A stretch of DNA of 64,000 nucleotides from Rubrivivax sp. (GTDB lineage: Bacteria > Pseudomonadota > Gammaproteobacteria > Burkholderiales > Burkholderiaceae_C). A program made the position numbers and the translations under genes. How positions within the stretch are numbered: the first letter of the stretch is position 1; each line of letters begins with the position of its first letter. This document shows positions 2,392 to 34,150 of this stretch, in pieces. Location: positions 1,227 to 65,226 of the forward strand of contig JALHPY010000011.1 of assembly GCA_022842305.1 (NCBI GenBank). Reading direction: 5' to 3'. Below the pieces are notes generated by a model that was not told the origin of the DNA, did no database searches, and worked only from the letters and a program-made list of their open reading frames with translations.

Positions 2392-2733
2392 ATGCATGAG
2401 ATGTCGCTGGCCGAAAGCGTGCGCGAGATCGTCGAAGACACGGCGCGCCAGCACGGCGCGCAACGCGTGTCCGCGGTGCGGCTGGAGATCGGCGCGCTGG
2501 CGCAGGTCGAGGCCGAAGCGCTGCGCTTTGCCTTCGACGTGGTGATGCGCGGCTCGCTGGCCGAGTCGGCGCGACTGGACGTGGTGCACACACTGGGCAC
2601 GGCCTGGTGCCCGCGCTGCTCGACGTCGGTGAGCGTCGCCGCGCGCGGCGAGCCCTGCCCGCACTGCGACAGCTACCAGTTGCAGGTGACCGGCGGCGAC
2701 CGCATGCGTGTCGTGGATATCGAAATCGAGTGA
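2392..2733 (+). CDS. hypA: Hydrogenase nickel-insertion protein HypA
   Basis: 113 aa. N-terminal MHE nickel motif and a Zn site CPRC...CPHC. Confidence 0.92.
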
Positions 2734-2746
2734 GAGGATCAGACCC

Positions 2747-3643
2747 ATGTGCACGACCTGCGGCTGCGGCAGCGGCCAGACCCGCATCGAAGGCCGAACG
2801 CCCGATCACACACCCGGCCACACCCACACCCACGCCGACGGCAGCACCCACAGCCACGTGCACGACGCCGGGCACGACCATGTGCACCACCAGGCCGAAG
2901 GCCTGGTGCACTACGGCACCGGTGCCGCGGGCGCCTCGGCGCCGGGCATGACGCAGGCGCGCATGGTGCAGATCGAGCGCGACATCCTGGCCAAGAACGA
3001 CGGCGCGGCGCAGCGCAACCGTGCCTGGCTGGCCGCGCGCGGCATCTTCGCGCTCAACCTGGTCAGCAGCCCGGGCTCGGGCAAGACCACGCTGCTGGTG
3101 CGCACCATCGAACTGCTGCGCCAGCGCCTGGCCATCAGCGTGATCGAGGGCGACCAGCAGACCAGCTTCGACGCCGACCGCATCCGCGCCACCGGCGCCC
3201 CCGCGCTGCAGATCAACACCGGCAAGGGCTGCCACCTCGATGCCGAGATGGTGGCCAGCGCGCTGCAGCGCCTGGCACCTGCGCCGGGCTCCGTGCTGAT
3301 GATCGAGAACGTCGGCAACCTGGTGTGCCCGGCCGGCTTCGACCTGGGCGAGGCGCACAAGGTGGTGGTGCTGTCGGTGACCGAGGGCGAGGACAAGCCG
3401 CTCAAGTACCCCGACATGTTCCACGCCGCGTCGCTGATGCTGCTGAACAAGGCCGACCTGCTGCCGCACCTGCGCTTCGACGTGGCGCGCTGCCTGGACA
3501 ACGCGCGCCGCGTCAACCCGCGCATAGAGATCGTGCAGCTGTCAGCCACCACCGACGCCGGCATGGACGAGTGGCTGGCGTGGATAGAGCGTGGCGCTGC
3601 GGCCGCGCGTGCTGCCGCGCCCGGCGCCGCCCAGCCGGCCTGA
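2747..3643 (+). CDS. hypB: Hydrogenase nickel-incorporation GTPase HypB with His-rich tract
   Basis: ATG at 2747 gives an N-terminal MCTTCGCG (CXXCGC) motif. There is a His-rich stretch ([28 protein letters not shown]) and a P-loop ([11 protein letters not shown]). Confidence 0.93.
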
Positions 3644-3647
3644 AGCC

Positions 3648-31151: not shown

Positions 31152-32694
31152 CGCCTTCATCCTCAACCTGGTGCTGTTCCTGCCGCTGCTGGGCGTGGCC
31201 GCCCTGCTGCTGGTGCCCGCCGCCAATGCCGCCGCCACGCGCAGCCTGACGCTGGCGGTGATGGTGCTGCAGTTCCTGCTGACCACCGTGCTGTACCTGC
31301 ACTTCGACAGCAAGGCCGCCGGCCTGCAGTTCGAGACCCGCCTGCCCTGGATTCCCGACTGGGGCGTGTCCTACCAGATCGGCCTGGACGGCTACAACAT
31401 CCTGCTGGTCATGCTCACGGCCTTCCTGGGGCCGCTGGTGGTGGCCGGCTCGTGGACCGCGATCACCAAGGACGTGAAGCTGTTCTACGCCATGGTCTTC
31501 CTCATCCAGTTCGCGATGATGGGCACCTTCGTGGCGCAGGACCTGTTCCTGTTCTACGTGTTCTGGGAAACCATGCTGATCCCGATGTTCCTGATGATCG
31601 GCATCTGGGGCGGCGAGCGGCGCATCTACGCCACCATCAAGTTCGTGCTCTACACCGCCTTCGGCAGCATCCTGATGCTGGCGGCGCTGATCTACCTGGT
31701 GTGGTCGCTGTACAAGACCACCGGCACGGTGAGCTTCGCCTTTGCCGACATCCTGAAGGCGCGGCTGCCGCTGGACGTGCAGACCCTGCTGCTGGCGGCC
31801 TTCGGCCTGAGCTTCGCGATCAAGGTGCCGATGGTGCCGCTGCACACCTGGCTGCCCGACGCCCACGTCGAGGCGCCGACCACCGGCTCGGTGATCCTGG
31901 CCGGCGTGCTGCTGAAGATGGGCACCTACGGCTTCATGAAGCTGGGCTTCCCGCTGTTCCCCGACGCCACGCAGCTGTACATGCCGCTGCTGCTGGTGCT
32001 GTCGGTGGTCAGCATCGTCTACGGCGCCTGCCTGGCGCTGGTGCAGGACGACATCAAGAAGATCATCGCCTACTCGTCCATCAGCCACCTGGGTTATGTG
32101 ATGCTGGGCCTGCTCAGCCTGGAGCTGGTGGGCATACAGGGCGCGGTGGTGCAGATGGTCAGCCACGGCCTGGTGGCGGCCGGCCTGTTCCTGATGGTGG
32201 GCATGATCTACGAGCGCTGCCATTCGCGTGACCTGGCGGCCTACGGCGGCCTGGCCAAGCTGATCCCGGTGTATTCGGTGTTCTTCCTGATCCTCACGCT
32301 GGCCTCGGTGGGCCTGCCCACGACCAGCGGCTTCACGGGTGAGTTCCTGGTGCTGCTGGGCGCCTTCACCTCGGCCTGGCCGCAGTACCAGGATGGCAAC
32401 AGCCTGCCGCTGGTGGTGGCCGTCACGGCGGTCTCGGGTGTGGTGCTGGGTGCGCTGTACATGCTGCGCTTCGCACTGACCTTCCTGTACGGCGCGGCCA
32501 AGGCGCCGCACCATTCCGAGAGCCACCCGCTGGCCGACCTGAACGGCCGCGAGAAGAGCATCCTGGCCATCCTCGTGGTGGCGGTGTTTGCGCTGGGCCT
32601 GTTCCCCGACGAGCCCATGCGCAAGACCGAGGTCGCGGCCAAGGCCTACCAGCAACTGGTGAGCACGCCGCGCCTGCCAGGGGGTGCGCAATGA
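31144..32694 (+). CDS. nuoM: NADH:quinone oxidoreductase subunit M
   Basis: 516-aa antiporter-like subunit (...FAIKVPMVPLHTWLPDAHVEAPT...). 8-nt overlap with nuoL. Confidence 0.93.
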   Translation: MSDAFILNLVLFLPLLGVAALLLVPAANAAATRSLTLAVMVLQFLLTTVLYLHFDSKAAGLQFETRLPWIPDWGVSYQIGLDGYNILLVMLTAFLGPLVVAGSWTAITKDVKLFYAMVFLIQFAMMGTFVAQDLFLFYVFWETMLIPMFLMIGIWGGERRIYATIKFVLYTAFGSILMLAALIYLVWSLYKTTGTVSFAFADILKARLPLDVQTLLLAAFGLSFAIKVPMVPLHTWLPDAHVEAPTTGSVILAGVLLKMGTYGFMKLGFPLFPDATQLYMPLLLVLSVVSIVYGACLALVQDDIKKIIAYSSISHLGYVMLGLLSLELVGIQGAVVQMVSHGLVAAGLFLMVGMIYERCHSRDLAAYGGLAKLIPVYSVFFLILTLASVGLPTTSGFTGEFLVLLGAFTSAWPQYQDGNSLPLVVAVTAVSGVVLGALYMLRFALTFLYGAAKAPHHSESHPLADLNGREKSILAILVVAVFALGLFPDEPMRKTEVAAKAYQQLVSTPRLPGGAQ

Positions 32695-32749
32695 AGCAAC
32701 GCAATGATTCCTGGGTGAGCACCGCAGCGCGCAGCGCAGAGGTTGACCG

Positions 32750-34150
32750 ATGAACGCGCAAGCCATCCTCACCGCCATGCTGCCGGAGCACCTGCTGCTC
32801 ATCGGCATCGTGCTGACGGTGATCCTCGAGATCGCCGGCAAGGCGCGCCACGCGGCGCTGCCCGTGGCCCTGATCAGCGTGGGTGCCGCCACGGTGGCCG
32901 CTGCCTGGCTGGCGCTGTCCGGCTACTCGGCCGCGCCCTTTGCCGGCCAGTTCTCGGTGAGCCCCGGCCCGCTGATGGCCAAGGCCATGGTGCTGGCGCT
33001 GGCCCTGCCGGTGCTGCTGATCGCCGGCAGCGACTTCGGCCCCGAAGGTTCGTACGGCGGTGAGTTCAGCACGCTGCTGCTGTCGTCGCTGTACGGCGTG
33101 TGCCTGATGCAGTCGGCCGACAGCTTCATGACCCTGTTCCTGGGCCTGGAGATCATGTCGCTGCCGGTCTACGTGCTGGTGCTGCTGGCCTGGCGCCGGC
33201 CGCAGGCGGCAGAGGCCGCGCTCAAGTACTTGGTGCTGGGCGGTGCGGCCTCGGCCACGCTGCTGATGGGGGCCTCCCTGCTGTACGGTGCCAGCGGTTC
33301 GCTGGACCTGGCCACCTTCGCGCAGGCGCTGTCGTCCACCGACCCCCTGGTGCGCACCGCCGTCGTGCTGGTGCTGCTGTCCTTCTTCCTCAAGGCCGCC
33401 ATCGTGCCCTTCCACGCCTGGGCGCCCGACGCGTACGAAGGCGCCAGCGTCCCGGTCACGGCCTTCATGGCGGTCATCGTCAAGGCCGCGGTGCTGCTGG
33501 CCGCGGTGCGCCTGTTCGGCGAAGGCCGGCTGGTATCGCCGGTGCTGGAGATCGTGGCCGTGCTGCCGCTGGTGAGCATCGTCTGGGGCAACCTGGCGGC
33601 GATGCGCCAGCCCAATCTGCGCCGCATGATCGCCTACAGCTCGATCGCCCACGCCGGCTACCTGTTCTACGCCTTCCTGGGCGAGCCCGAAGGGCGGCTG
33701 CAGGCCGTGGCCTTCTACCTGCTGGCCTATGGCCTGCTCAACCTGCTGGTCTTCACCGCGTTGCCGCCCGCGGCCGACGATGGCGAGCGCGACAAGCTCG
33801 AGAACCTCAAGGGCCTGTTCCACCGCAACCCCTTTGCCGCGCTGATGATCGGCCTGGCCATGCTTTCGCTGGCCGGCATTCCGCCGCTGCCGGGTTTCAT
33901 CGCCAAGTTCCTGATCTTCAAGAACGTCATTGCCGCCGGCTACGTGAGCTACGCGGTGCTGGGCCTGGTGGGCAGCTTCCTGGGCATCTACTTCTACTTC
34001 CGCGTCATCCAGTTCATGTTCATGAGCCCGGATGCCGCCGCGCCGGTGGACGGCCCGGTGCGCCGCATCGCCGTTACCGCCAGCCTGGCCTGCCTGGGCG
34101 CGGCACTGGTGGTGGCGGTGTTCCCCGGCTGGGTGATGGCGCACTGGTAG
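32750..34150 (+). CDS. nuoN: NADH:quinone oxidoreductase subunit N
   Basis: 466-aa antiporter-like subunit (...FFLKAAIVPFHAWAPDAYEGA...). Confidence 0.92.
   Translation: MNAQAILTAMLPEHLLLIGIVLTVILEIAGKARHAALPVALISVGAATVAAAWLALSGYSAAPFAGQFSVSPGPLMAKAMVLALALPVLLIAGSDFGPEGSYGGEFSTLLLSSLYGVCLMQSADSFMTLFLGLEIMSLPVYVLVLLAWRRPQAAEAALKYLVLGGAASATLLMGASLLYGASGSLDLATFAQALSSTDPLVRTAVVLVLLSFFLKAAIVPFHAWAPDAYEGASVPVTAFMAVIVKAAVLLAAVRLFGEGRLVSPVLEIVAVLPLVSIVWGNLAAMRQPNLRRMIAYSSIAHAGYLFYAFLGEPEGRLQAVAFYLLAYGLLNLLVFTALPPAADDGERDKLENLKGLFHRNPFAALMIGLAMLSLAGIPPLPGFIAKFLIFKNVIAAGYVSYAVLGLVGSFLGIYFYFRVIQFMFMSPDAAAPVDGPVRRIAVTASLACLGAALVVAVFPGWVMAHW

Follow-up and report, generated by a model that had tools for sequence, protein, structure and literature searches.

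A gene block joining hyp genes, multihaem cytochromes, MtrCAB and a complex I in Rubrivivax as a putative anaerobic respiratory module

The subject of this work is a 64,000-nucleotide stretch of DNA from Rubrivivax sp. (assembly GCA_022842305.1, contig JALHPY010000011.1), called the window below, and in it a block at positions 2392-34150 that joins maturation genes of [NiFe]-hydrogenase (hyp), two inner-membrane multihaem cytochrome genes, the predicted extracellular electron conduit MtrCAB and a complete nuoA-N operon for complex I. From its gene content, its recurrence in relatives and its predicted promoter signals, the linkage looks like a real anaerobic respiratory module rather than a chance neighbourhood. 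The reading that we favour, with moderate confidence, is that of a respiratory island induced under anaerobic conditions: an accessory complex I would feed the quinone pool and two quinol oxidases would pass the electrons to MtrCAB. Across the loci collected with MtrB and with nuo as anchors, the linkage comes back repeatedly and persists through rearrangements, without being obligate.

Gene order, recurrence and predicted promoters

Regarding the gene order, the block runs from hypABFCD through a c/b cytochrome gene, an ImcH-type gene, hypE, two monohaem cytochrome genes, mtrC, an HhH gene, mtrA and mtrB to nuoA-N; every gene is on the plus strand save the ImcH-type one, and 288 bp lie between the stop of mtrB and the start of nuoA (20748). 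Genes were called in this DNA (G+C ~69%) from third-position GC and checked with Pfam and NCBIfam. The calls bore out the gene content, order, strands and spacing given in a preliminary description of the stretch, including its six hyp genes, 11-haem c/b cytochrome, two monohaem shuttles, decahaem MtrC and MtrA, MtrB and complete nuoA-N. The genes up to mtrB are the following:

2392-2733, plus strand: hypA, above its NCBIfam equivalog/subfamily cut-off, as are the next four genes
2747-3643, plus strand: hypB
3648-5945, plus strand: hypF
5950-6189, plus strand: hypC
6186-7334, plus strand: hypD
7504-9624, plus strand: CbcL/MtrH/MtoC-type c/b cytochrome, 706 aa, 11 CXXCH and a C-terminal cytochrome-b-like membrane domain
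10049-11449, minus strand: ImcH-type NapC/NirT multihaem cytochrome, 466 aa (PF03264, haem motifs)
11602-12651, plus strand: hypE (TIGR02124, 462.8 bits against a cut-off of 251.6)
12849-13160, plus strand: first MtoD-like monohaem cytochrome c, 103 aa (CNKCH, signal peptide)
13189-13500, plus strand: second MtoD-like monohaem cytochrome c, 103 aa (CNKCH, signal peptide, PF00034)
13860-16712, plus strand: mtrC, MtrC/OmcA-family decahaem lipoprotein, 950 aa (TIGR03507, PF22113)
16910-17299, plus strand: HHH_3 (ComEA-like) secreted protein (PF12836), the HhH gene, unmentioned in the preliminary description
17369-18298, plus strand: mtrA, periplasmic decahaem protein of the MtrA/DmsE family (TIGR03508)
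18369-20459, plus strand: mtrB, outer-membrane porin of the MtrB/PioB type (TIGR03509, PF11854)

Two open reading frames (ORFs) were discarded as spurious: one at 9686-11605 (plus strand, 639 aa), which has no Pfam match and overlaps the haem-rich minus-strand gene, and one at 12782-13081 (plus strand), the true first monohaem gene being in another frame. The canonical CXXCH motifs of the block number 39, plus one CX3CH and one CX4CH; an earlier count of 40 had to be lowered because the NapC/NirT-type protein holds only six canonical motifs.

The adjacency of these genes recurs in other genomes. In a set of 80 loci anchored on MtrB, with one genome per species, nuo follows mtrB on the same strand, across a gap of ~120-480 bp, in 11 species, whose NuoB and NuoD are 80-94% and 81-91% identical to those of the window; among the 71 loci that extend 700 bp or more downstream, 10 have the adjacency, as do 10/52 when the MtrB is at least 48% identical. 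The nuo-linked loci are scattered over several subclades of the MtrB tree, interleaved with unlinked ones, and the distribution of nuo among close relatives is patchy. With nuo as the anchor, Mtr-family cytochromes stand directly 5' of nuoA in four of the five other long contigs (A210, L089, L090 and L091), three times on the strand opposite to nuo, and those of L089 and L091 are of a different Mtr lineage (MtrA 41% and MtrB 24% identical to the window's proteins); the fifth contig has frdCAB divergent from nuo. A divergent nuo is also present at L174, beside mtrCAB, a CbcL-like gene and a NapC/NirT-type gene. Counted together, four long contigs beyond the metagenome loci show the divergent orientation and the different Mtr lineage (MtrA 41%, MtrB 24-25% identical). 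Finally, a metagenome scan with NuoB gave 46 loci having at least 1 kb 5' of nuoA, a position occupied by Mtr genes in 12, pyruvate:ferredoxin oxidoreductase (PFOR) in 4, a cyclic-nucleotide-binding (cNMP-binding) regulator in 2, fumarate reductase (Frd) in 1 and something else in 27.

As judged by gene order, two other lineages also have the whole layout of hyp, cytochrome, Mtr and nuo genes. The first is Rubrivivax sp. A210 (GCA_904426505.1), with a CbcL-like gene, hypE, hypX, two small cytochromes, mtrC, HhH, mtrA, mtrB and nuo; GCA_963852325.1 has this same order up to mtrB, without nuo. The second is a 900-kb contig (ERZ25039527 contig_13651) on which loci L173 and L089 are 3 kb apart: its first part carries HupH, rubredoxin, HybE, a HupK-like gene, hypABFCD, three small cytochromes and a CbcL-like gene, and it continues with an ImcH-like gene (minus strand), hypE, hypX, two MtoD-like genes, inverted Mtr genes, nuoA-N, a cNMP-binding gene and a DHODB-type Fe-S gene.

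As for the promoters, the box TTGAT-N4-ATCAA, scored as a simple consensus match with at most one mismatch, is found at four sites in the window, where chance alone would give 0.25. Two of them are in the block:

12690-12703, no strand assigned: FNR/CRP-type box TTGACCAGGATCAA, 159 bp 5' of the first monohaem gene
20562-20575, no strand assigned: FNR/CRP-type box TTGATCTGAAGCAA, in the mtrB-nuoA spacer, 186 bp 5' of nuoA

The other two are found 5' of the DHODB/GltD-Kor block and 5' of the CBS/Usp genes, both downstream of nuoN, and with two mismatches allowed, FNR-like boxes occur also at 7400 (CbcL-like gene, 2 mismatches), 13668 (mtrC) and 54207 (frdC). Among related loci, a box is present within 400 bp 5' of nuoA in 26/78, against a background of 0.027 per 400 bp, 5' of mtrC in 12/20 and 5' of frdC in 4/4; the controls taken at internal genes gave 0/80 for MtrB, 0/82 for NuoD and 1/37 for NuoG. 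Strong terminator hairpins follow mtrC (16764-16799) and the ImcH-type gene (10013-9982), and a GC-rich hairpin lies 3' of the mtrB stop (~20482-20502); a scan for the sigma-70 promoter consensus was uninformative in DNA of 69% GC. Because of these separate boxes and hairpins, the block is made of several transcription units, not one operon, and these probably share a predicted FNR/Anr-type anaerobic signal. In favour of the module proposed in the preliminary description, FNR-type promoter boxes are shared by the modules across related loci; none was found upstream of hypA, even with up to 2 mismatches.

These data also bear on an explanation by co-inheritance, according to which the modules share an anaerobic island and a global regulator, with no specific partnership; nuo would then serve general anaerobic NADH oxidation (fumarate, nitrate), and the adjacency of hyp would be an accident of insertion. 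It agrees with the missing box at hypA, with the absence of hydrogenase structural genes anywhere in the 64-kb window, and with the loci themselves, given that 34/46 nuo loci have no Mtr genes 5', some having Frd, PFOR or the regulator instead, and that nuo is missing from most MtrB loci. On the other hand, nuo is tied to two Mtr lineages, and in either orientation, a sign that proximity was selected for more than once; the interleaving of hypD, the CbcL-type gene and hypE is kept in at least four lineages, and the enrichment is far over that of a random genomic neighbour. Weighing the two sides, we consider co-inheritance alone unlikely.

The conduit, its cytochrome partners and the hyp genes

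All three conduit genes are within 6.6 kb, and their products score above the family cut-offs: MtrC (TIGR03507, 425 bits against a cut-off of 209; PF22113, 189 bits) has 10 CXXCH and the lipobox LSGC, MtrA (TIGR03508, 300 bits against 192) also has 10 CXXCH, and MtrB (TIGR03509, 440 bits against 240; PF11854, 504 bits against 23) is full length. With the porin, MtrA and MtrC all identified, MtrCAB is a predicted porin-cytochrome conduit. MtrC is unusually long (950 aa), and just after the lipobox (13860-14100) it has a collagen-like Gly-Pro-X repeat, GPAGPAGSQGPTGPAGPPGQQGDPGSAGGAG, with weak Collagen/Scl-type matches.

The closest named relative of MtrB is that of Rubrivivax sp. A210 (65% identity), followed at 55-62% identity by hundreds of proteins from Caldimonas, Rubrivivax and Burkholderiaceae metagenome-assembled genomes; proteins 99-100% identical to NuoG and to the c/b cytochrome are encoded, in the same gene order, on contigs of an activated-carbon drinking-water filter metagenome. 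Exact-match look-ups of the 699-aa MtrB and of the CbcL homologue of Rubrivivax sp. A210 found no entry. By its gene content, the Mtr cluster of the window matches the Group 4 (Burkholderiales) type, in which the passenger genes described are mtoC, mtoD, HhH and ccm (Baker et al. 2022, PMC8805035). It has in common with this group, for which Rhodoferax ferrireducens T118 is the cultured example (Shi et al. 2012, as relayed in PMC6295460), the order mtrC-HhH-mtrA-mtrB, and also the MtoD-like monohaem genes and a CbcL/MtrH/MtoC-type c/b cytochrome within the cluster (PMC8805035, PMC6295460); the HhH gene is kept between mtrC and mtrA in nearly all related loci. There are some differences: the window has an adjoining complex I and hyp genes, whereas the words NADH and hydrogenase do not occur in the text of the two Group 4 papers (PMC8805035, PMC6295460), its c/b cytochrome gene is inside the hyp operon, and its partner is of the ImcH type, whereas CymA-type partners are reported for R. 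ferrireducens.

The c/b cytochrome has its 11 CXXCH within residues 64-364, with matches to Pfam multihaem domains, and a crude hydropathy scan gave four strong transmembrane (TM) segments and several His-rich hydrophobic stretches; its membrane domain matches PF01292 with 26.4 bits, under the cut-off of 30.1, and its FdnI-like matches are weak. The best 120 of its 1775 homologues are Burkholderiales proteins of 56-100% identity. Proteins of the CbcL/MtrH/MtoC family combine a periplasmic c domain of 3-23 CX2CH with a b-type membrane domain, which is HydC/FdnI-like and usually has six TM helices and three conserved His; they are already known in betaproteobacterial mtrAB/mtoAB clusters and are thought to be bidirectional (Zhong and Shi 2018, PMC6295460). 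The 11-haem protein appears to fit this description, with a putative b domain whose Pfam score is below the cut-off.

As for the ImcH-type protein, the NapC/NirT type given in the preliminary description is confirmed by PF03264 (32 bits against a cut-off of 24.1, residues 15-105, at the N-terminus), but its seven haems are not seven canonical motifs: CAAMCH (CX3CH) comes first, at residue 44, followed by six CXXCH, and there is an extra CSNPACH (CX4CH). One TM segment (residues 10-28) exceeds the threshold of a crude hydropathy scan, and the sole PDB match is NrfH (2j7a). The defining traits of ImcH are an N-terminus homologous to NapC/NirT, seven haem motifs that begin with CXXXCH, and at most three TM helices (Levar et al. 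2014, PMC4251993), and homologues with one TM helix are known (PMC6295460). ImcH homologues have so far been found only in Fe(III) reducers, and Zhong and Shi (2018, PMC6295460) saw no mtrAB beside any imcH; therefore, an ImcH-type gene inside an Mtr cluster is new with respect to that survey. An orthologue with 76% identity has the same position and strand in L173, and a CbcL-like gene is likewise paired with a ~460-aa NapC/NirT-type gene in L173, L174, L021, L034 and L051.

Compared with Geobacter sulfurreducens, the ImcH-type protein shares with ImcH the NapC/NirT homology and the seven motifs with CX3CH first, as judged here by the motif pattern (PMC4251993), while the c/b protein shares with CbcL the multihaem c domain fused to a membrane domain, putatively of b type in the window (PMC6295460), and both types are encoded in one organism. 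Unlike in Geobacter, the host is betaproteobacterial, the two genes adjoin each other and mtrCAB, the CbcL-type protein has 11 c-haem motifs, and the ImcH-type one has only one clear TM helix.

The two monohaem cytochromes each have one CNKCH and a signal peptide, and PF00034 matches the second copy; pairs of genes of ~100 aa are found at their position in L001, L002 and L173. The latter locus also has, at 7595-9564, between hypD and the CbcL-like gene, three extra small cytochrome genes on the minus strand (213 aa, 201 aa of NapC/NirT type, and 116 aa), which are missing from the window.

HypA, B, C, D, E and F form a complete maturation set for [NiFe]-hydrogenase, each above the NCBIfam cut-offs. 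Their genes are not contiguous: hypE is split from hypABFCD by the two inner-membrane cytochrome genes, which are convergent and separated by a spacer (9624-10049) with the strong hairpin at 9982-10013, and then by a divergent spacer of 153 bp (11449-11602). Being cut off in this way, hypE must own a promoter; no FNR-like box was found in that spacer. The hypABFCD order of the window is that of L173, where HupH, rubredoxin, HybE and a HupK-like gene come before hypA; the succession of a CbcL-like gene and hypE is also found in L001, L002 and L173, and relatives have hypX after hypE, a gene that is not in the window. At the position 5' of hypA, where relatives have hydrogenase accessory genes, the window has a gene for a TRAP DctM permease (313-2283), whose long ORF starts with a ~235-aa Arg/Ala-rich extension that is probably untranslated.

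In Burkholderiales, clusters for membrane-bound uptake [NiFe]-hydrogenases, such as that of Cupriavidus necator, consist of hox/hup structural and accessory genes followed by hypABFCDE(X). The hypA-B-F-C-D-E order of the window is alike, and relatives add hypX and the HupH/rubredoxin/HybE/HupK-like genes; unlike those clusters, the window has hypD and hypE broken apart by two cytochrome genes, no hypX, and a TRAP transporter gene instead of hydrogenase genes 5' of hypA. In the light of L173, the hyp genes form the last part of an uptake-hydrogenase cluster invaded by the quinol-oxidase genes. The preliminary description had proposed a self-contained module running from NADH, and possibly H2, to extracellular metal; for H2 it is not self-contained, because hydrogenase structural genes are absent from the window; in L173, accessory genes come 5' of hypA. 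With the cytochromes inserted in an uptake-hydrogenase cluster, H2 is a plausible extra donor, by way of a hydrogenase encoded elsewhere.

Another physical link of Mtr to hydrogenase-related genes, of a different kind, is found in a more distant Burkholderiaceae Mtr clade (L066, 12610-19214; also L063 and L082), in which the genes after mtrCAB, encoded on the other strand, form a group-4 (Hyc/Hyf/Coo-like) membrane hydrogenase-type module with a fused NuoC/NuoD-like large subunit and NuoH-like and NuoL/M-like subunits.

The complex I and its surroundings

The last part of the block consists of the following genes:

20748-21113, plus strand: nuoA
21120-21638, plus strand: nuoB
21641-22114, plus strand: nuoC
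22114-23355, plus strand: nuoD
23352-23819, plus strand: nuoE
23816-25177, plus strand: nuoF
25170-26630, plus strand: nuoG, 486 aa
26627-27775, plus strand: nuoH
27772-28359, plus strand: nuoI
28359-28943, plus strand: nuoJ
~28936-29238, plus strand: nuoK
29253-31151, plus strand: nuoL
31144-32694, plus strand: nuoM
32750-34150, plus strand: nuoN

The set of 14 subunits is complete, NuoEFG providing the NADH module, and three of them miss the TIGR equivalog cut-offs: NuoD (447.5 against 459), NuoF (487 against 559) and NuoG (305 against 470). NuoG covers only the first 323 of the 606 model positions, which is its N-terminal half, and it has 478-495 aa in all of the best 120 homologues; in solved structures, nearly all NuoG proteins have 630-910 aa. 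In a comparison with 1.84 billion representatives, NuoD has no more than 54% identity to full-length ones outside its own cluster, and its nearest named outsiders come from Binatia, KSB1/Deferribacteres, Verrucomicrobia and Acidoferrales. This subunit has no [NiFe] cysteine motifs and retains the quinone-site motifs HPATHG and DRLNY, so the enzyme is predicted to be a true NADH:quinone oxidoreductase. That NuoD could be a disguised large subunit of a [NiFe]-hydrogenase, which would explain the hyp genes, was considered and rejected: the N- and C-terminal CxxC nickel ligands are absent, and the C-terminus is typical of complex I.

Spero et al. (2015, PMC4453560) place the canonical complex I of Betaproteobacteria in clade B; in clade C, which includes the enzymes of Bacteroidetes, Gemmatimonas and Pelobacter, NuoG is at its shortest, averaging 493 aa. 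By its short NuoG, its sub-cut-off NuoD, NuoF and NuoG, and its distant NuoD, the nuo of the window is not of the clade B, canonical betaproteobacterial kind; the NuoG length of 486 aa agrees with clade C, a placement drawn from this length and from the distant NuoD relatives, not from phylogeny. Second complex I isozymes have mostly come by horizontal transfer and belong to bacteria with a versatile energy metabolism, and the only betaproteobacterium with two isozymes in that survey has clades B and E (PMC4453560). Like those second isozymes (Rhodobacter sphaeroides with clades A and E; Geobacter with E and "other"), the window has a complete nuoA-N outside the host's canonical clade, which looks horizontally acquired, is tied to anaerobic respiratory functions and has a clade C-like NuoG length; unlike it, none of theirs is reported beside an extracellular electron conduit (PMC4453560).

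It could be argued that this nuo is the housekeeping one, the only complex I of the organism, and that its adjacency to mtrB is coincidental. The operon is complete, with intact catalytic residues, and the second nuo of the same genome, a clade-B enzyme, is inferred only. The short NuoG, the sub-cut-off subunits and the non-proteobacterial relatives of NuoD do not belong to the canonical clade of Betaproteobacteria, and such operons are patchy among close relatives, have FNR-type boxes 5' and recur in anaerobic neighbourhoods; on this evidence, a housekeeping role is very unlikely.

The preliminary description had also called this complex I dedicated, and here its wording was too strong: only about a quarter of such nuo operons are adjacent to Mtr genes, and others stand by Frd, PFOR or the cNMP-binding regulator. 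The window itself points the same way, with nuoN followed by two toxin-antitoxin pairs, a cNMP-binding protein, an NfnAB-like pair and a KorAB-type 2-oxoacid:ferredoxin oxidoreductase, as well as by Usp and CBS genes, a TRAP DctPQM transporter and a three-subunit fumarate reductase/succinate dehydrogenase (Frd/Sdh). In L089, too, a nuo of this type has the genes for the cNMP-binding and DHODB-type proteins 3' of it, to which L091 adds the GltD-like gene. With Frd and PFOR at its flanks in various loci, and with conserved cNMP-binding and NfnAB-like genes, nuo is thus part of an anaerobic, low-potential metabolic neighbourhood.

In the window, the stretch at 37237-45520 comprises the cNMP-binding protein of 158 aa (minus strand), the NfnAB-like pair of a DHODB-type Fe-S protein and a GltD-like flavoprotein, the KorA/KorB-type enzyme (OGOR) and a 732-aa protein in which only a C-terminal ferredoxin domain is recognized; the spacer at 37713-37970 has three FNR-like boxes. 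At 46909-53922, TRAP DctPQM adjoins, on the minus strand, Frd/Sdh with a large cytochrome b subunit, a flavoprotein and an Fe-S protein, and an frd of this type is directly divergent from nuoA in L092, L153 and L162. In other loci (L125, 4381-8031; L158, 2312-6978; L135, L166 and L172), a ~1215-aa NifJ-type PFOR-like ORF lies 5' of a short-NuoG nuo, with a DHOD-like gene after PFOR in L158 and L172, whereas L140 has the DHOD-like ORF only; no cytochromes are present at these PFOR-preceded loci. The assignments come from Pfam for the PFOR-like ORF of L125 and the DHOD-like ORF of L158, and from sequence similarity for the others.

Right after nuoN, at 34169-35545, there are two type II toxin-antitoxin pairs, ParE with a 90-aa partner and Phd/YefM with CcdB, which are shared with the near-identical contigs L086 and L087 and are possibly a feature of island boundary or stabilisation. 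No tRNA gene or integration site was found in the window, and PLSDB has no close relative of NuoG or MtrB, hence no sign of plasmid carriage. Finally, the far end of the window (59497-63826) has genes of the XdhC family, with a TPM domain and for LemA, and hemE, for the uroporphyrinogen decarboxylase of haem biosynthesis.

Direction of electron flow and significance

In the favoured reading, the host would be a facultatively anaerobic Burkholderiales (Rubrivivax/Caldimonas-like) bacterium, whose modules, each transcription unit having an FNR-type box, would be co-induced as oxygen falls. The complex I with its truncated NuoG, putatively accessory and horizontally acquired, would oxidise NADH, pump protons and reduce the quinone pool; the MtrH/CbcL-type c/b cytochrome and the ImcH-type cytochrome would re-oxidise the quinol, and the two may serve acceptors of different redox potential, as in Geobacter. 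The two MtoD-like monohaem cytochromes would then ferry the electrons over the periplasm, and MtrA, MtrB and MtrC would carry them across the outer membrane, with Fe(III) or Mn(IV) outside the cell as the acceptor. This complex I isozyme would also serve fumarate respiration, so as to be shared rather than exclusive to Mtr. We infer the direction of flow, the co-regulation in vivo, the division of labour between the oxidases and the use of H2 from sequence.

Several points weigh against this respiratory reading. The adjacency is present in only about 14-26% of loci, and therefore the coupling is facultative; the box counts come from a simple consensus match in phylogenetically related loci, and thus lack independence. 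Among the proteins of the window, none was recognised as a regulator of the FNR family that has a DNA-binding domain; the cNMP-binding protein that is conserved there has only 158 aa. MtoD and MtoC/MtrH-family proteins are also present in Fe(II) oxidisers, and the sample was taken from an oxic drinking-water biofilter.

An inward flow, which the preliminary description had raised for Fe(II), also has to be considered, in which electrons of Fe(II), Mn(II) or a cathode would pass through MtrCAB and the MtoD-like cytochromes to the MtrH/MtoC-type protein and the quinone, and a complex I driven in reverse by the proton-motive force would make NADH; the NfnAB-like proteins, OGOR and (in relatives) PFOR would turn this NADH into reduced ferredoxin and fixed carbon. 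MtoD-like and MtoC/MtrH-family proteins, the latter considered bidirectional, are typical of Fe(II) oxidisers (PMC6295460); the Group 4 hosts include metal-depositing strains, and Ramlibacter lithotrophicus RBP-2, a related member of Burkholderiales, expresses mtrCAB on Mn(II) (PMC8805035), while reverse complex I is known in phototrophs and lithotrophs (PMC4453560). The NfnAB-like pair, the 2-oxoacid:ferredoxin oxidoreductase and Frd directly 3' of nuo, an arrangement kept in L089 and L091, would fit as well, and so would PFOR 5' of nuoA elsewhere. However, the window encodes an ImcH-type protein, of a family implicated only in quinol oxidation in Fe(III) reducers, and no RuBisCO, ATP-citrate lyase or other carbon-fixation marker was found in it; the frd and TRAP transporter genes suit heterotrophic fumarate respiration, and the anoxic induction implied by the FNR-type boxes would remove the usual oxidant for the oxidation of Fe(II) or Mn(II). 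The ImcH-type protein and the FNR-type boxes thus speak for outward flow, and inward flow seems rather unlikely.

A variant that we hold to be improbable is a reversible electron gate: under anoxic conditions, electrons from Fe(II), Mn(II), a cathode or a syntrophic partner would reach the quinone by way of MtrCAB and the MtoC-type cytochrome, and those from H2 by way of the uptake hydrogenase. The short-NuoG complex I, working in reverse, would then yield NADH, from which the NfnAB-like proteins, the 2-oxoglutarate:ferredoxin oxidoreductase and (in relatives) PFOR, with fumarate reductase, would obtain reduced ferredoxin and reductive carboxylation. If true, members of Burkholderiales would fix carbon lithoautotrophically or mixotrophically, with a complex I adapted to reverse electron transport as the driver.

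Regarding novelty, the families are known singly, and Burkholderiales Mtr clusters with MtoC/MtrH, MtoD and HhH are already published. The preliminary description was aware of no described locus of this kind: for the nuo and hyp linkage this stands provisionally, as no published case was found in the searchable literature, whereas the CbcL-type gene is already known in betaproteobacterial Mtr clusters as MtrH/MtoC. Likewise, no description of the recurrent link of Mtr to a short-NuoG complex I, of the ImcH-type partner or of the hyp/hup interleaving was found in that literature, which covers few subscription journals, and the papers on R. ferrireducens and on complex I with Mtr in Shewanella had nothing on a linked nuo.

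For Betaproteobacteria, what is known of extracellular electron transfer comes mainly from inventories of genes, and the inputs and outputs of the quinone pool are largely obscure outside Shewanella and Geobacter. In conclusion, the locus points to a horizontally acquired complex I isozyme, of a widespread short-NuoG lineage without a solved structure, that has been repeatedly set beside Mtr conduits; to a Geobacter-like pair of quinol oxidases, of ImcH and CbcL type, that would serve a Shewanella-like outer-membrane conduit; and to a physical tie with uptake-hydrogenase genes. Anaerobic co-induction through the FNR boxes, and a nuo-specific phenotype in the reduction of metals or electrodes, are testable in the cultured Rubrivivax sp. 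A210, and the module may be relevant to the cycling of Fe and Mn in engineered water filters, soils and sediments, where such Burkholderiales abound.

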